Source: Candidatus Eiseniibacteriota bacterium
GTDB lineage: Bacteria > Eisenbacteria > RBG-16-71-46 > CAVPCR01
Reading direction: 5' to 3'
NCBI GenBank assembly: GCA_963823555.1
Contig: CAWGMA010000001.1
Coordinates: 1,344,001 to 1,408,000 of the forward strand
DNA: 64,000 nucleotides
The notes below the pieces were generated by a model. The model had not been told where the DNA came from. It saw nothing but the letters and a program-made list of their open reading frames with translations, and did no database searches. The position numbers and the translations under genes were made by a program. Shown one piece after another: positions 43,843 through 54,041 of this stretch (position 1 is its first letter; each line of letters opens with the position of its first letter).

Positions 43843-46800
43843 CTACTTGACCAGGAGGAGCTTTCGGGTCCGGGAGACATCACCGACCGTGAGGCGGGCG
43901 AAGTAGATTCCCGACCCAGCCCCCTCCCCCGCCCGGTTCCGTCCGTCCCAGGTGACGGCATGTCGCCCCGCCGGGTAGCGGCCGCCAGCCACTTCGCGCA
44001 CGGCGCGCCCCGCGATGTCGAAGATCACGAGCCGCACCTCGGCCGCCGCCGGCAGGTCGAAGCTCAAGACGGTGGCCGGGTTGAACGGGTTGGGAACGTT
44101 GGGGTGCAGAGCGAGCTCGAGCGGCACCTCGAGCGCCGTGGCCGCAACCGGACCGTAGTAGACGGATTCGCCGGAGCGCGACACGGCCTCCAGACGGTAG
44201 TAGTAGGTGCTTCCCGGAGGGATCGGGTCCCGGTAGGTGTACGGACTCCGGCCCGAGATCGGTTGGGGACCGGTGAGCCGCCCGTACGAGCCATCCACCA
44301 GCTCGGACCTCCAGACATGGAAACCGAGATGATCGGCCTCGGCGGCAGTCGACCAGGTGAGAATGACCGCACCCATGTCCGCCCTCGCGCTGAACTCGGC
44401 GAGCTCGACCGTGGAGACGGCGGTCGTCCGGAAGCGGTTCCAGCCGAGCTGGTTGAAGATCGACGTCTGGCCGTCCGTGGCTCGCACCCGCCAGGCGTAG
44501 TCCGTGTTGTGAGCCAGCGGCATCGGCCACGCGAGGGTGGTGTCGGAGGCCGCGATCACGGAGTCACTGGCAGCGAACGTGGAATCGGTCCCGACATACA
44601 CGACATAGAGGACGCTGGTCGGCCCGGCCGCTCGCCAGGTCAAGGTGGGCTGGTAGACGACGCCGGTGTCGGCATGGGCGGGAGAGAGCAGGGTGAAGGC
44701 GCCCGGAGCCGGCCCGAAGCTCTGGATCAGCATGAAATCGTCGACGGCATTGGCCGACTGCCCGACGAGCCCGACCCCGGCATAGAGCGTGGCCGTGTTT
44801 CCCTGTCGCTTCCCAGGGTCCGTCAGCCGGGAGTGGAAGTCGTCCCCGATGTACACGTCGAAGTGATGGCCGGTCGGATCGGAGGAGAGAAGGACCTTCC
44901 AGGTTCCTCCCGCCCCGAGGGTGTTCGGGATGAGGCCGGCTGCGTTCGTCAAGGGGAAGCCGGAGGCTCCGGCCCGGATCTCTCCCAGCTTGCTGCGATT
45001 GGTGAACGGATCGATCGTCACCAGGTATCCGCTCGCGCTGCCCGAGGCGGCGTCCATCATGACGGCGAGACCGCCGCGGAGGATACCGTCCGGACTCGCG
45101 CCGGGGCTGAAGCGGAAGCCAGCCGCAGTCGGGTTGGGCCGTGCCTCGTAGATGCCGAGATCGAAGCTCGGCAGGGCCGAGGTGTTGCGCAGCTCGTCGG
45201 CGATGATCTGCATGGGGGCGAGGTCCCCGTTCCAATCCGGTCCCAGGGTGGGGCGGTTGAAGTCATCGACGATGACTTCAACCGGTGCCGTGACGAAAGT
45301 CCAGGACTGGTTGGACATGACCTGGGCGCCGCTGGCATCCCGGGCCTGGACCCGCCAGTAATAGGTCTCCCCGGCCGCCAAAGGCTCCCGGAACATGGTC
45401 TCGGGGAGTGTTGTCGACGGCAGCTGCTGCGGGTTCGGGAAGTCGGGGTCGGTGTCGACGCTCACCGTGTAGGTGATGAGATCGCCTGGATTGGGGTCGA
45501 CTGCTTCTTCCCAGCGCAGGAGCGGAGCCAGCGAGTAGACAATGCTCTGATCGATCGGTTGCTGCAGATTGAAGGCGGCGGGCGGCAGATTGAGACCCGC
45601 CGCCGCGACCGTGAATTCCTCGATGTTGTTGGCCTCGTTCTCTCCGAGGAGGAGCCCGACAAAGGTGAGCGAGCCGGAGCCCTGGCGCCGTTCCGGGTCC
45701 GTCATGCGAGCGTCGAAGCGGTTGTCGACGTAGCACTCGAAGTGATGGCCGCTGGCGTCTCGCACGAAGACGACACGCACCACGTCCCCGGGCTGGGGAA
45801 CAGGGTTCAAGCCCGGGACGTCGATATTGAGGCTGCCGGTGAGCTCCCCGTTCTGGACCTCCCAGACCGACCACCGCTGCTGCCCGGCCGTGTTGCGGAA
45901 GACGAAATAGCCGTTGGCGATGGTGGAGGGAGCGTCCATCCCGAGCAAGCACCCGCCGTAGCCGATGCCGGTCTGGCTCGCCGCTTCACTCCACCGCCAT
46001 TCGACCGATACGGGATTGGCCGCGCCGGTGTAGATCGCCAGATCACTGAACCCGGGCGCCGTGCAGGCGATCTCACCGTTCACGATCGCATAGCTGGGGT
46101 CGGCGATCCAGTCGGGCCCCAGGGTGGAGCGCTCGAAGTCATCGCGGATCTGGTGCAGATCCGGCGAGGTGAAGGTCCTTGTGCTGAGCGAATAGGTCGC
46201 TGCTCCTTCGGGATCTTGAGCCTTGACCCTCCAGTAGTACATCGTGTTGGGGGCCACGGGGATGCCGCGCGCGAAGTTGCTGACGATGAGATTGTCGACA
46301 CGGAGCGTGGCTTCGGACTGGAAGTCGGGATCCGGAGACATGAAGAAATCGTAGAAGACGTAGTCGCCGTCCGGGTCGGTGGTCGATTCCCAGTCGAAGA
46401 GTGGATTCAGATTGACGAGATTGGATCCAGAGGTCGGTGCGATGAGATCGAATGGCTCCGGCGGACCGTTGAACGAGACGGCCTCCACGCGCCACGCGGC
46501 CGCGTTGTTGCTGAAGCTACCGTCACCGATCACCCCGCACCAGTAGTCGTTGTTGCCGTGGCGCCGCAGGGGATCGACGAGAGTGGCATCCAGCTCGCCG
46601 TTCACGTAGATGATGAACTGATGGCCGTTGGCGTCCGAGCGCATCTCGACCGCGAAGCGGTCGCCGGCCTGCGGGGCCGGGCGCCGGGGCGAGTCGGTGT
46701 CGATGAGGGCGCCGGGGACGCCGTCGACGACTTCCCTCAGGGCAAGGGTCTGGTCGCCCGCCGTGTTGCGGTAGACGATGTAGCCATCGGCCGTGTTGGG

Positions 46801-48150
46801 ATCGGTGCTCTCGAGACGGCAGGCGAGTCCCGCCTGGTTGATGCCGGCGGCGTCCGCTCCCGCGCCCCAGGTGAGCTCGACATGGAACGGGTTCACGACG
46901 CGCGTGAAGATGGCGGTGGCGAAGCCCGGGGCGGTGTTGTCGAGTTCGCTGCCGGTCACGACATAGCTGGTCGAGGCCCAGTCGGGACCAGGGTGCGACA
47001 TGGAGCGCGTGAACGCGTCCTCGTAGATGTTGTCGTTCTCCGTGGTGGCGACGGTCGCCGGGTTGGACATCGCGGAGAGGTTGGCGGCGTCATCGAGCAG
47101 CTTGGCTGCGAAATGGTAGGTGGTTGCGGGCGAGAGCCCGGTGATGACTTCTCCACCCACCTCCCCCGCCGCCGCGAGGGCGTGGTAGTCGCCCCCCTGA
47201 TCGGCGAGCGGGAAGCTGGCGGCGTCGATCGGCGCCGGTCCATACCGGCAGTCGGCATAGCGCGGCGTGCCGCTCGTGCCGTCATCGCCGGTGTTGGTCC
47301 ACACCAGCAGCACCGAGCTCCCGTGCACGGTGCCGACGGCGAGATCGGTGATCGGGTCGGGTGGGGTCAGGTCGTTGAGGGCCTGGTCCACTGCCTCGAA
47401 GTAGACAGTCTTCATCTGATCGTAGCCGGCGTCATTGGGGTGGATGGCATCGAACATCCAGTCGTTCGCGGCATTCGGGTTGGCGGTGAAGCGGGTCCAG
47501 TGGTCGGCGATGCGCACCGGTTCCGGCGATCCGGTCACGGTGCCATGACGGTAATCGAGGGCGATGCGGACGACTTCCCGGTTGAAGTCGGCAACATCGG
47601 TCTCCCGGCCCTGGATGGGGATGATGCGGCTGACGATGACCTGGCTGCTGCCTGCCATCAGGGCTTGCCCGATAAGGGTGCCGAGGTCGCCGGTCGGGTT
47701 GGTGTCAGGCGTTCCGTGATCGGACGACCACGGGCCGTACGGCCCGGGGGCGGCAAAGACCTCCGCCGTGCCCAGGTGGATGGCCACGATGTCCGGTCCG
47801 TAGGTGGCGATGGTGGGGCCGATGTCGTGGCTGCCGCCGGCATGGTAGTCGGCGATTCGCGCCCCGGTGAAGAAGTCTCCTTCGTCCGGTTCGGTACCGG
47901 AGGGGCCCACGAAGTCGAAGCCGCCGATCGTGTTGAGAGACGTATAGAGGATGTGACGGAACCCGAGTCCGCTCGTCGAGCCCACACCTTCAGTGATGGA
48001 GTCTCCGGTCGGCATCAGGTTGGTGGCTGCCGCCGGACCGGAGGTCGCGGTCGAGACCGCGAGCAGAGCGAGGACAAGGACCTTCTCCGGGCGGAGGCCC
48101 GCATCATGCGATCTCCTGCGCTTGGAGCGAACAATGGCTGATCCGTTCAC
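43843..48150 (-). CDS. large secreted protein: SGNH/GDSL hydrolase + FN3 + three 292-aa repeats + FlgD-Ig/T9SS-like C-terminal domain
   Basis: Signal peptide; GDSIT and DAIHPN catalytic blocks; YYWRV FN3 motifs; terminal PNPFNP...IFDIAGRAVR...WDGRN...SGIYFARL...KLLLVK. GTG start at 48150 is inferred. Confidence 0.85.
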   Translation of the reverse strand: MNGSAIVRSKRRRSHDAGLRPEKVLVLALLAVSTATSGPAAATNLMPTGDSITEGVGSTSGLGFRHILYTSLNTIGGFDFVGPSGTEPDEGDFFTGARIADYHAGGSHDIGPTIATYGPDIVAIHLGTAEVFAAPGPYGPWSSDHGTPDTNPTGDLGTLIGQALMAGSSQVIVSRIIPIQGRETDVADFNREVVRIALDYRHGTVTGSPEPVRIADHWTRFTANPNAANDWMFDAIHPNDAGYDQMKTVYFEAVDQALNDLTPPDPITDLAVGTVHGSSVLLVWTNTGDDGTSGTPRYADCRYGPAPIDAASFPLADQGGDYHALAAAGEVGGEVITGLSPATTYHFAAKLLDDAANLSAMSNPATVATTENDNIYEDAFTRSMSHPGPDWASTSYVVTGSELDNTAPGFATAIFTRVVNPFHVELTWGAGADAAGINQAGLACRLESTDPNTADGYIVYRNTAGDQTLALREVVDGVPGALIDTDSPRRPAPQAGDRFAVEMRSDANGHQFIIYVNGELDATLVDPLRRHGNNDYWCGVIGDGSFSNNAAAWRVEAVSFNGPPEPFDLIAPTSGSNLVNLNPLFDWESTTDPDGDYVFYDFFMSPDPDFQSEATLRVDNLIVSNFARGIPVAPNTMYYWRVKAQDPEGAATYSLSTRTFTSPDLHQIRDDFERSTLGPDWIADPSYAIVNGEIACTAPGFSDLAIYTGAANPVSVEWRWSEAASQTGIGYGGCLLGMDAPSTIANGYFVFRNTAGQQRWSVWEVQNGELTGSLNIDVPGLNPVPQPGDVVRVVFVRDASGHHFECYVDNRFDARMTDPERRQGSGSLTFVGLLLGENEANNIEEFTVAAAGLNLPPAAFNLQQPIDQSIVYSLAPLLRWEEAVDPNPGDLITYTVSVDTDPDFPNPQQLPSTTLPETMFREPLAAGETYYWRVQARDASGAQVMSNQSWTFVTAPVEVIVDDFNRPTLGPDWNGDLAPMQIIADELRNTSALPSFDLGIYEARPNPTAAGFRFSPGASPDGILRGGLAVMMDAASGSASGYLVTIDPFTNRSKLGEIRAGASGFPLTNAAGLIPNTLGAGGTWKVLLSSDPTGHHFDVYIGDDFHSRLTDPGKRQGNTATLYAGVGLVGQSANAVDDFMLIQSFGPAPGAFTLLSPAHADTGVVYQPTLTWRAAGPTSVLYVVYVGTDSTFAASDSVIAASDTTLAWPMPLAHNTDYAWRVRATDGQTSIFNQLGWNRFRTTAVSTVELAEFSARADMGAVILTWSTAAEADHLGFHVWRSELVDGSYGRLTGPQPISGRSPYTYRDPIPPGSTYYYRLEAVSRSGESVYYGPVAATALEVPLELALHPNVPNPFNPATVLSFDLPAAAEVRLVIFDIAGRAVREVAGGRYPAGRHAVTWDGRNRAGEGAGSGIYFARLTVGDVSRTRKLLLVK

Positions 48151-48246
48151 CGATCCATCTCCCTCTGTCGTTGCGCCAACCCCGCGGCACGGCCATCGCA
48201 TGGGGTTCCTGATCCGATTGGAGGCAGACCCTGGCCTCCCACGTGG

Positions 48247-50818: not shown

Positions 50819-50895
50819 TGGTGCCCCCGGGGTGACTCGAACACCCGGCACGCGGTTTAGGAAACCGCTGCTCTATCCGCCTGAGCTACGGGGGC
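50819..50895 (-). tRNA. tRNA-Arg(CCT)
   Basis: GCCCCCGTAGCTCAGGCGGATAGAGC...TT-CCT-AA...GTTCGAGTC...CCA. Confidence 0.96.
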
Positions 50896-51093: not shown

Positions 51094-51846
51094 TCAGAAC
51101 CTCGACTTGATCGCACCCCAGGTCGTCGATTCGAGCTCGGGTGCCGTGTAGAGATCACTCGGCTTGTCGGCCAGCTTGCTCGAGGGGCTGCCGATCAGGT
51201 GACCGCTGACGACCGCGAACTGGAGCTCGAAGGTGTGGTACCGGCCTCCGGGGGTCCGCACCGTGCGGCGCACGACACCCACATCGGGCACGAGAATCTC
51301 GGAGCAGATACCCGAATCCGAGCAAGGATTCTGGTCGTAGACGATCGTGACCGACCAGGGGAATTCACCGGCCGGAACCGTGATCGGGTGTCCCTTGTTG
51401 GCGATGAATCCCTTGGTCCCATGGACGCAGTCGTCCGCCATGAGCGGCAACGACACCTTCTGCCCCTCGTAGATCGAGTGCGAGCAGCAGTACCAGGTGC
51501 CGATGAACTCGTCGTACGGAGGAGCTTTGGTCCACGGTGGGATGCTCGGCTGGAAGGTCTTGGGGTTCATCTCGCACACCCACTGACACGCGTTGTTGAG
51601 GAGATACACGTCACTGCCGTCGATGGGGAACATGTAGCCTTCCATCCGGCTGACGCGGTAGCCGTAGATGTCGATCCACTCGGCCGAGCGAACAACCGCG
51701 TTCCCCATGAACGGCGAGACATAGTACCAGTAGTTACCCGGCTGAAGAGGAAGCATGGAGCCTTCGGGAGGATCCGCGACGGCGGTCCCGAAGGTGACAG
51801 CCAGCATCGCGAGGATGGCGATGCTGGATGCGGCGGCCCTATTCAT
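51094..51846 (-). CDS. secreted Cys-rich hypothetical protein with a C-terminal TWGxIK tail
   Basis: AAGGAG RBS, Sec signal peptide (AVA-DP), ITVPAGEF..VGVV beta motif, 7 Cys, ends TTWGAIKSRF. Confidence 0.8.
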   Translation of the reverse strand: MNRAAASSIAILAMLAVTFGTAVADPPEGSMLPLQPGNYWYYVSPFMGNAVVRSAEWIDIYGYRVSRMEGYMFPIDGSDVYLLNNACQWVCEMNPKTFQPSIPPWTKAPPYDEFIGTWYCCSHSIYEGQKVSLPLMADDCVHGTKGFIANKGHPITVPAGEFPWSVTIVYDQNPCSDSGICSEILVPDVGVVRRTVRTPGGRYHTFELQFAVVSGHLIGSPSSKLADKPSDLYTAPELESTTWGAIKSRF

Positions 51847-52174
51847 GACTCAACTCCTTCTCACGTTCCCGTTGCTGCGGCCTTTCCGTCGGCCGGAGCT
51901 TCGGGGTACTGGCGGTCGCCGCACCTTGGGGGCGGCGACCGCCGCTCCCCGTTGGCGTGAACCGGTGGCGAAACCGGCGTTTCGCATCCGCTCACGTCGT
52001 TGTTGTTTACTACTCTCTCAACGATGGTGGCGATGGAGCTGAACAGGAAATCTGGGCGCCGTGGAGATTCGGCCGTGCCGAAGAAGAACAGGAGTTCGCT
52101 TTCCTACAATGAACATGACAGGTTCGATGGAGAACCTGTGCACGGCGGGAGTGTGACCGGGGGCACGATCCTCT

Positions 52175-53692
52175 TCATTCCCGGGGCGGTGGCTCGGTCG
52201 TGGTGAGGGGGTCGGCCAGCTCGTACACGCGTCCGGCTGCGACCACTCCAGCCCACGAGGCGCGGAGGTCGGGAGCACCGAAGTGACGCTTGATCAAGCG
52301 CCCGCGCAGCTCGGCCCGCGTGCCGCGCGGGGGGGCCGCGACCAGTTCCCGCCACCGGGTCTCCGTTCCCAGGGAGTCCGCTGCCGCGAGCGCTCGGTCG
52401 ATCTCGGCTCCGCTTCCGTCCGCGATCCGGGCGAGGCCGACATCGAGGCGGTAGAGGCGGTCGATGAGCTCGGCTTGGCGCGGGTAATCGCGGATCGAGA
52501 AGCCCGCCTCCTCGATCTCGTGCTGGAGAGACGCTGCCGCTTCCTCCCCGATCTTCCTCCGGACCGCGTTCCACGATGTGGGCCTCCCCTTCCCCTCTTC
52601 CCCGCAACGGCGGTATAGCTCGTCGATCATCTTCGCCCATAGCCGCGCCGTACGCCAGTCGGCACGCTCGCGGGCGAGGAAGGTGCTCAGGGCGCGACGT
52701 CGCAAGGACGACTCGATGAGGAGCGAGCATTCGTCCTCGTCACCGCGGGCGATGGCGGCGAGTCCCCGCCGCCACTCGGCGATGAGGGGCCGCGCCCAGG
52801 GCGCGATGGGATCTTTGGTGTCGGCGGCCTCGATCCATGTCAGCAATCGCTCGTTCAGTCCGAGGGCCGTGGTCACCTCACCATCCATGGTGGCGATGGA
52901 TGCTTCCGGCATCAGGCTCACGGTGCGCAGGGCGCGGAGTGGGTGACGCAGGGTGAGGTTGTCCGGCCACGGGTGTCCGCGCAGGATGAGCTCGAGAAGG
53001 AGCGCGGTCACCCCCGAGCGCACGGCGATGGCCCACGATGATGCCGTGCCCCCGGCGGCGATCACGTGCACGCGGCGCCAGCCGCGGCCGGCGTAGTTGA
53101 GGCGGCAGGTCGTGAAGACGGCGCGGTCGTGCGTGGTGTGGGGTCCCGACACGCGCGTCATGAGCTCGGCGCGGGGGGCGAGGGCGAAGCCGTCACCTTC
53201 TGGCGAGGAATCCACCACCCCGGGCTCGGTCAGGATCGTACGCGCCACCACCCAGCTGAGCAGTGCCGGCGTGAGCTGCGACGGCTCGAGGGTCGTCGGC
53301 ACGCCATAGTTCTCGTGCGTGCCGAGACTCACCTCCCCAGGTTGATGGAAGGTCGAGGCGACGGCCGGTATGACCTTGTAACCCCATTCTTCCCGGAGGC
53401 GGTCCGAGGCCCGGGTGACCAGGGCGAGGCCTGCCTTGTGGGCCGCGGCCAGGTCGAACGGGTCGGTGCACTCAGGGGTCGACAGCTCGGGCACGAATCG
53501 CGGTGGATCGAGACCGATGGCTGCCCCGTTGGCCAGGAAGAGGGTCGAGCGATGTTTCGAACCCCAGCCGAGAGCATGGGGCTGGGTCGCCCCGACGGCC
53601 GCCAGGAGGGCGCGGCCGATGGACTCGCGAACCCGGAGCAGCGGGCGGGCGCCGAGCAACGCGAGCTCGCTTTCGAGGCCCATCACGATCAC
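52175..53692 (-). CDS. divergent Pup-ligase/deamidase (PafA/Dop, PafA2) family protein
   Basis: GLESE, FLANGA...D..PE.STPEC, S.GTHENY, PRAE, WRRVHVI, PP.GTRA.LRG..I, W, DP, in the same order as in PafA. Confidence 0.85.
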   Translation of the reverse strand: MIVMGLESELALLGARPLLRVRESIGRALLAAVGATQPHALGWGSKHRSTLFLANGAAIGLDPPRFVPELSTPECTDPFDLAAAHKAGLALVTRASDRLREEWGYKVIPAVASTFHQPGEVSLGTHENYGVPTTLEPSQLTPALLSWVVARTILTEPGVVDSSPEGDGFALAPRAELMTRVSGPHTTHDRAVFTTCRLNYAGRGWRRVHVIAAGGTASSWAIAVRSGVTALLLELILRGHPWPDNLTLRHPLRALRTVSLMPEASIATMDGEVTTALGLNERLLTWIEAADTKDPIAPWARPLIAEWRRGLAAIARGDEDECSLLIESSLRRRALSTFLARERADWRTARLWAKMIDELYRRCGEEGKGRPTSWNAVRRKIGEEAAASLQHEIEEAGFSIRDYPRQAELIDRLYRLDVGLARIADGSGAEIDRALAAADSLGTETRWRELVAAPPRGTRAELRGRLIKRHFGAPDLRASWAGVVAAGRVYELADPLTTTEPPPRE

Positions 53693-53758
53693 GGGTCGAA
53701 CTCTGGAGCTGGGTGGTGGGGGGACAGGTCGGACCGGGAACGCGGAGCGGGCGGTCGA

Positions 53759-53929
53759 TCACTCGCCCGCGAGCTGCCAGAGGATCTCTCCCTGGGGGCG
53801 AGTCGTATCGTTGTCGATTCGCCGGAGAAGATTCTCCACCACCGAGGCGGCACGCGCGGGTGGGACAGCGAGCGTTGCGGCTGGAACCTCGATCTCCTGG
53901 GGAGCGGTGATTTCGAGCTTGCTGGTCAT
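53759..53929 (-). CDS. Pup/UBact-like small ubiquitin-like modifier (56 aa, ends in GE)
   Basis: Strong GAGGAGGAG RBS; MTSKLEITAPQEIEVPAATLAVPPARAASVVENLLRRIDNDTTRPQGEILWQLAGE; directly upstream of the PafA-like gene. Confidence 0.75.
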   Translation of the reverse strand: MTSKLEITAPQEIEVPAATLAVPPARAASVVENLLRRIDNDTTRPQGEILWQLAGE

Positions 53930-54012
53930 GGTGGCTCCTCCTCGGATATGGAGTGGCGGCGCGGGGCCCTGCGGACCCCGCGCCGCCCGCGGTGGTCGGC
54001 GACGACGCTTCC

Positions 54013-54041
54013 ATGATACCCGCTCGACCATTCGGAGTCAC
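54013..54041 (-). promoter_or_regulatory. putative sigma70-type promoter for the Pup-like/PafA-like cassette
   Basis: GTGACT-N17-TATCAT. Confidence 0.45.

Follow-up and report, generated by a model that had tools for sequence, protein, structure and literature searches.

Introduction

Pupylation in actinobacteria relies on Pup, PafA and Dop (TIGR03687, TIGR03686 and TIGR03688; structures 4b0t, 4bjr, 4b0r and 7oxy). Free Pup is intrinsically disordered and becomes helical on binding. PupE and PafA are sufficient to pupylate proteins in E. coli according to the accessible text of PMC12288473. The same text, together with the accessible part of PMC3511204, describes Corynebacterium as having Pup, ARC and Dop without a proteasome, and in Corynebacterium glutamicum ARC disassembles pupylated ferritin with no proteasome (PMC12288473). 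A smaller arrangement was recognized computationally by Iyer, Burroughs and Aravind in 2008, who, in the sections of their paper available to us, report Pup with a single ligase and no proteasome linkage in Plesiocystis pacifica and Rhodopirellula baltica (PMC2588565). Single Planctomycetes homologues fall outside both PafA and Dop in the available portion of the work of Hecht et al.

In this study we analyzed a window of 64,000 nt from the genome of a soil-type uncultured bacterium (G000), which carries a small Pup-like modifier ORF directly upstream of a divergent gene of the PafA/Dop family. To our knowledge, all well-studied pupylation depends on the ARC/Mpa ATPase, including in organisms that lack a proteasome. 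Judged by its sequences, the pair would work like pupylation, yet it lies outside PafA, Dop, Pup and UBact as the models of these families define them. An earlier, sequence-only reading of this DNA had presented the locus as a minimal, possibly proteasome-independent pair; that the pair stands alone held up, but the concept was predicted in 2008 (PMC2588565) and non-degradative pupylation is known in Corynebacterium (PMC12288473). What is new is the soluble clade, a tag without a match to the Pup or UBact models, its conserved N-terminus and a remodelled active site, whereas the concept of a proteasome-less pair is already known.

Like ours, the pairs of Plesiocystis and Rhodopirellula consist of a small protein that ends in G[EQ] and a single adjacent PafA homologue, are not linked to proteasome genes and have a proposed regulatory role. 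Their ligases contain a four-helix transmembrane insert (after core strand 4) and are linked to a membrane protein, whereas the ligase in the window is soluble by its model and has a remodelled active site, and the window pair has no conserved third gene or membrane-protein neighbor. With the actinobacterial system the window pair shares the fold, the GhExE motif, the catalytic Asp, the hydrophobic-x-Q-x-x-G-E tail and the predicted binding mode, but it differs in its low structural identity (19-24%), in scores of about one fifth of the equivalog cut-offs, in forming a separate clade, in a tail that reads AGE rather than GGE, and in that no Dop, ARC/Mpa or 20S genes were found in its genome. 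Corynebacterium likewise tags proteins without a proteasome but keeps ARC and Dop; neither was found in the window genome, so that the known reader is missing as well. The Gram-negative-type host and a tail of the form x-G-E rather than GG-E are features that we take to be UBact-like. The pair nevertheless differs from UBact (NF033388) in having no model match and no proteasome operon. We found no description of the window ligase clade in the literature searched, which lacked most subscription journals.

Results

A conserved modifier gene precedes the ligase-family gene

The modifier ORF (53759..53929, minus strand; 56 aa, ATG at 53929, C-terminus ILWQLAGE) is preceded by the Shine-Dalgarno-like sequence GAGGAGGAG (53935..53943, minus strand), which ends 5 nt ahead of the ATG and whose GGAGG occupies the same position in two related metagenome loci (L027 and L028). 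A gap of 66 nt separates its stop codon from the GTG (53692) of a gene for a divergent, soluble PafA/Dop-family protein of 505 aa (52175..53692, minus strand), a family of GS-fold carboxylate-amine ligases. This arrangement, proposed from the letters alone, was confirmed by our analysis of the sequence and by the Pup_ligase match of the larger gene, as was the flanking apt gene, 5' of the modifier, by a Pribosyltran match in Pfam.

The genome contains 59,868 stop-to-stop segments of at least 40 aa. A G[EQ] end is found in 342 of them and a QxxG[EQ] end in 10, while an end of the form hydrophobic-x-QxxG[EQ], a pattern picked after the ORF had been seen, occurs once, in the modifier ORF. A metagenome scan of 113 candidate stretches yielded L027 and L028, whose ligases are 64% identical to that of the window. 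Both have a small ORF ending in WQLAGE directly upstream of the ligase, and the codons of this tail show only synonymous differences across the syntenic loci. Conservation of the small ORF beside ligase homologues, on which the sequence-only reading had made its proposal depend, was thus found at 2/2 metagenome loci. A profile of the three modifiers then retrieved 23 proteins among 57 candidates (22 homologues and the window copy); since shared five-residue words were required, this search favors the WQLAGE tail and would miss variants. The 23 proteins are 56-71 aa long, and all of them end in GE, within a C-terminal WQLAGE whose terminal Glu is invariant. For 10 of the 22 homologues the longest contig has exactly the same size as that of a ligase-clade protein, a proxy for co-location that gives 10/12 when homologue contigs are at least 2 kb. 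Thus, the modifier gene is real, conserved and linked to the ligase gene. At the other end of the protein, S2, R3 and D4 are each at least 90% conserved ahead of a variable linker, which suggests that a partner reads this N-terminus; the window copy departs from it (MTSKL). Internal lysines are not conserved (0-3 per protein, none in 5/23).

None of the 23 modifier proteins matched the Pup models, with which the canonical Pup of another locus (L002), our positive control, scored 69.5. Similarly, UBact NF033388 matched no modifier, its best match in the genome (E 0.6) lying elsewhere, and searches of protein families (Pfam and NCBIfam) and the ESM Atlas returned no match and no usable hit, respectively. 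Profile-profile comparison with Pup-like modifiers gave no significant alignment (probability 0.2%). The claim that the modifier corresponds to neither Pup nor UBact therefore stands with regard to the models and to its ending in AGE rather than GG[EQ], but the tail keeps the hydrophobic-x-Q-x-x-G-[EQ] of Pup. In addition, the description of Pup in the available text of Iyer et al. 2008 (50-90 aa, a G[EQ] end and a gene adjacent to the ligase) applies to the modifier.

Several elements around the pair are consistent with a two-gene unit without proving it. The gap between apt and the modifier holds a sigma-70-like promoter match (54013..54041, minus strand; 9/12, a match to the consensus only), with one found against 0.2 expected, and its TAT[CG]AT hexamer aligns in L028. 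A weak terminator-like hairpin lies 3' of the ligase (52118..52139, minus strand), with one found against 1.0 expected by chance. A G+C-rich hairpin that may be regulatory (53954..53987, minus strand; folding z -3.3) is also present in the modifier's putative 5' leader; in L028 (5575-5663; z -2.7) its bases are changed yet still paired, whereas the L027 leader (z -1.0) has a hairpin that is not the same. In the window, L027 and L028, the pair is preceded by surE, pcm, a gene for a sigma-70 factor and apt (families named on the window copies). These neighbors could point to stress or the stationary phase, although the position may be a mere insertion site, because a genome of the same genus (G001) has the cluster without the pair. 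The 250-aa ORF 3' of the ligase had no match in Pfam, NCBIfam or PADLOC. PADLOC gave no match at the locus, and viral contigs gave 25 pattern matches and no relatives of the pair, which lends no support to a phage-borne or known defence role.

The ligase-family protein lies outside PafA and Dop

The 505-aa protein matches Pfam Pup_ligase (PF03136) with 162 bits against a cut-off of 25, and lies below the equivalog cut-offs of both Dop (TIGR03688; 113 versus 492 bits) and PafA (TIGR03686; 112 versus 551 bits). A Foldseek search with its AlphaFold2 model (pLDDT 90, pTM 0.92) recovered Dop and PafA structures at TM 0.64-0.75 by query length and 19-24% identity, with Dop slightly above PafA (best match Dop, E 1e-24, TM 0.75) and other GS-fold enzymes far below. 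No transmembrane insert follows HENY in the alignment or the model, indicating a soluble protein, and there is no Dop-loop insert.

In a midpoint-rooted tree (IQ-TREE, LG+C20) of 40 rows, comprising 10 clade members, 2 canonical PafA, 6 Dop-like proteins and sampled others but no verified UBact-operon or Planctomycetes ligases, the ligase clade has support of 100/100 and a long stem (1.29). The sequence-only reading would have been refuted in part by a ligase nested within canonical UBact-proteasome clades; the window ligase lies outside the canonical PafA and Dop clades, the branches that part it from them having support of 98/98 and 99/96. Forcing the clade together with PafA was marginally rejected (p-AU 0.041), and a FastTree phylogeny of 87 rows (every third distant representative, one under 400 aa dropped) agrees with this placement. 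The sister-group branch is weak (87/74).

The clade is rare. It comprises 14 relatives at 40-72% identity in 90% clusters, or about seven representatives at 50% clustering, two fragments among them, and it occurs in 2/206 genomes of the phylum, G000 and G001. Within the genome collection, an alignment of the close clade recovered a relative from 0/47 candidate stretches and a divergent alignment from 2/69, one clade member and one distant match of 26%. The G001 ligase is a clade member of 619 aa, 38% identical, that lies beside purM; 88 nt upstream is a small ORF ending in QPNGE, unlike the modifier, with which the modifier profile gives no significant alignment (probability 0.7%). At the apt locus of G001 the modifier-ligase pair is absent. 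Across the 206 genomes the modifier profile had a strong match in G000 only and four weak ones (E 0.002-0.008). One weak match, L047:1447-1839 in the genome G002 (E 0.0016 over the 206 genomes), does not lie at a ligase locus and was rejected as a modifier, being an ESLWQLRGE frame with no following stop, antisense to a gene and likely due to chance; no ligase was found in that genome.

Active-site residues are partly kept and partly remodelled

Residues were counted in 19 clade rows and 68 other family rows. E7 and E9 are present in 18/18 of the clade rows that cover them, position 62 reads D in 18 and E in one of the 19, E74 is kept across the clade, and E69, H126, R174, R190, R207, H209 and W480 are found in 19/19 rows, as are T186 and T187. 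The PafA counterpart of D62 in the alignment is D64 (N in 4bjr). Motifs 1-3 and 5 of Iyer et al. 2008, as given in its available text, can be recognized (E7, E9, D62, E69, H126-E-N128, R190 and R207), and T186, T187 and R190 correspond to two threonines and an arginine whose mutation slows or abolishes PafA according to the accessible part of PMC7947786. By alignment, the putative metal ligands and catalytic Asp are kept over 38-72% identity.

Other positions are remodelled throughout the clade. Position 58 is A in 19/19 clade rows and R/K in 52/68 others, and position 60 is G in 19/19 and Y in 65/68; the Dop equivalents, R90 and Y92, hold the alpha-phosphate according to the accessible text of PMC8599861. 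Position 67 reads V/T in the clade against H in 63/68 others. The [RK]-D-E motif, which has R/K at 196 in 68/68 others and at which Dop R227 holds the phosphate, is lost, and an Arg at 197, one place after the basic position of the motif, is present in 19/19 clade rows. The strand-6 [QH]x4D motif, as it appears in the available text of Iyer et al. 2008, is broken, since H209 is kept and the acid at 214 is gone (G in 19/19 clade rows, D/E in 67/68 others). Finally, position 46, which lies in a short insert at the site of the Dop-loop, is basic in all 19 clade rows; this residue and Arg 197 may be replacements for those that were lost. The unusual residues are common to the homologues, and no indel was called at the locus.

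At the positions that distinguish PafA from Dop in the accessible part of PMC7947786, the protein is mixed. It is PafA-like in lacking the Dop-loop and an equivalent of Dop His95 and in having F52 (PafA F54), L61 and an insertion after D62, and Dop-like in S71-T-P73, G183 and S479, as opposed to the A-T-A and D-W motifs of PafA; its alpha-loop region is modelled as a strand rather than the PafA helix (pLDDT ~70 in this region, with three Dop rows in the alignment). With these mixed diagnostic residues and the loss of several conserved active-site residues, the sequence-only description of the protein as a PafA-like ligase could not be established. We infer ligase activity from the Glu-ending tag and the lack of another ligase more than from the sequence of the protein, given its mixed features and the clade-wide losses.

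The modifier tail is predicted to enter the active site

Complex prediction with the ligase, modifier residues 20-56, ATP and Mg gave a score of 0.86, against 0.00 for the best control; the mark for this score is reached by 116/157 solved pairs and 2/215 mismatched pairs. At least 43% of the contacts are shared between runs, and the modifier has a pLDDT of 57-69. In the predicted interface, a modifier segment predicted to be amphipathic (residues 30-38), which shows an i,i+3/4 contact pattern, lies on ligase residues 323-338 and 416-434. The tail (49-56) also belongs to the interface, as do ligase E9 and D62, which places it, in the model, in the active site. Because Pup-PafA and Pup-Dop complexes have already been solved (4bjr and 7oxy), this result shows likeness rather than binding, and it may represent recall of the solved Pup complexes.

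Search for proteasome machinery in the whole genome

The G000 assembly (4.62 Mb, 4 contigs, 92.5% complete) contains one Pup_ligase match and no match to PF00227 (proteasome/HslV subunit) or PF16450 (ARC OB domain). The best score with the ARC model TIGR03689 (154 bits) covers an AAA core only, and a six-frame search with the canonical PafA and Dop of relatives found only the window ligase. In G001 (85% complete), PF00227 and ARC were likewise not found. Thus, the statement that the window holds no proteasome, ARC/Mpa or second paralogue can be extended to the whole 92.5%-complete genome. The assembly has ~185 putative frameshifts, scattered in patches. At G000:C1:1581500-1588500, clpP, clpX and lon are frameshifted, as they are in G001, and the frameshifts are probably long-read errors. 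A link between the pair and these broken genes was rejected, because the frameshifts lie at other places in G001 and are patchy genome-wide.

Discussion

The best reading of these data, which we hold with somewhat better than even confidence, is proteasome-independent lysine tagging by two genes. The ligase would activate Glu56 of the modifier with ATP and join it through an isopeptide bond to protein lysines, no deamidase being needed because the tag ends in Glu. Since no proteasome, ARC or Dop was found, the tag would not be a proteasome signal; the output would be tagging without a proteasome, in which the tag changes the fate of its target sterically or through a reader, probably of its conserved N-terminus. 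Ligation, the lysine acceptor, the targets and the reader are all points that we infer. That the pair represents a third Pup-type class, with a narrow or non-lysine acceptor and an MSRD[LQ]L terminus read by non-proteasomal machinery (e.g., the genome-encoded ClpX or Lon) without ARC or Dop, is conceivable but rather unlikely.

The remodelled active site bears on two alternatives to lysine tagging. There is a small chance that Glu56 is activated but joined to something other than protein lysines in general. The acceptor could then be a small amine, the N-terminus of a protein, a single dedicated target or the modifier peptide, the last resembling precursor-peptide chemistry with the conserved N-terminus as leader. 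The clade-fixed changes, which surround the catalytic Asp together with the phosphate/acceptor side (L61-D62-P63-P64, V67, 196-198 and G214), are in keeping with another acceptor, as are the related GS-fold enzymes that ligate small amines in the available text of PMC2588565 and the N-terminal MSRD, with its conservation of at least 90% ahead of a variable linker. Nevertheless, the three syntenic loci show no conserved neighboring gene for a peptidase, transporter or tailoring enzyme, and the modifier lysines are unconserved, which argues against self-cyclisation via lysine. A slightly smaller chance attaches to a protein that is not a working ligase at all. It would then be a hydrolase, like Dop, or a slow or inactive enzyme that does no more than bind the modifier (a scaffold, inhibitor or sensor pair). 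Loss of the alpha-phosphate R/Y pair and of the RDE motif, together with S71, P73, G183, S479 and the shape of the alpha-loop, all Dop-like, would fit this view, but the putative metal ligands and catalytic Asp are all kept over 38-72% identity, and the basic residue at 46 and Arg 197, each in 19/19 rows, are candidate replacements. Moreover, a hydrolase would have no substrate, because the tag is Glu-terminated from the start and the searches revealed no second ligase.

The remaining alternatives concern the gene content. The pair could belong to an ordinary Pup/UBact-proteasome or ARC pathway as its detached front end, with the other genes missed in an assembly that is 92.5% complete in 4 contigs; the genome-wide search covered G000 and G001, and full or ARC-containing systems do occur elsewhere in the phylum. 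We regard this as very improbable, since PF00227 and ARC are absent from both genomes in searches that read through frameshifts, the ligase lies outside PafA and Dop (98/98 and 99/96; AU with PafA p=0.041, marginal), and no UBact or Pup model matches. High G+C DNA is rich in spurious ORFs, and the small ORF has no family or Atlas match, so that it could be taken for a chance frame beside an orphan ligase. This possibility is negligible, being refuted by conservation: 22 homologues share the tail and the position of the stop codon without variation, third-position changes are synonymous, and the RBS and the gene position are conserved.

A conserved pair with neither ARC nor Dop bears on the role of a Pup-type tag in the absence of the known readers, a question that two small soluble genes make testable in E. 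coli. The clade-fixed changes in the active site amount to a natural experiment on the switch between ligase and hydrolase in PafA and Dop. If active, the pair might also serve as a tool for tagging that is orthogonal to proximity labelling with Pup and PafA.

Related operons and neighboring genes

A third branch of Pup ligases in the phylum (L032, L033 and L037; L008 and L035) resembles the window pair in that the ligase is immediately preceded by a small ORF with a Q-x-x-G-[EQ] end, and midpoint rooting places the window clade on the side of this branch (94/92, not starred). Derivation of the window pair from an operon of this branch is a possibility. Third-branch ligases keep the equivalents of Y60, [RK]196 and D/E214, however, whereas the window clade does not, and their modifiers do not align with that of the window.

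Three of the third-branch loci (L032:3608-13098, L033:936-10621 and L037:9224-19645) combine JAB, an ARC-like AAA ATPase, two Pup-ligase-family genes and a small RQxGG[EQ] ORF, with ThiF in the operons of L032 and L033 and a Prok-RING match below the cut-off in L037; no proteasome subunit was found in the three loci. These operons unite a ubiquitin-like cascade and a Pup-like system, and we found no description of ThiF-JAB-ARC-two-ligase operons in the literature on Pup ligase, JAB and Planctomycetes. The solo pairs L008:1092-3711 and L035:8582-11509 have an RQPSGE or RQPGGE ORF before a ligase of 771 or 832 aa; the L008 ligase carries a TPR tail, and the two form a separate long-branch clade. 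At L036:1452-2362 (genome G199), a dop-like gene is directly followed by what we presume from motifs to be proteasome-subunit-like genes and by pafA; no small ORF with a G[EQ] end lies among these genes.

Secreted-looking proteins of mutually unrelated sequence, which share a TWGxIK-like C-terminal motif that we take to be a sorting signal, are found at a shared position, following either the ligase or apt, in the window (51094-51846, minus strand), L027:7638-9499, L028:7651-8745 and L054:324-1370. The window gene adjoins a tRNA-Arg (50819-50895). Further along, the window also encodes a secreted protein of 1452 aa (43843-48201, minus strand) with a GDSL-like hydrolase, FN3/Ig repeats and a FlgD-Ig tail.
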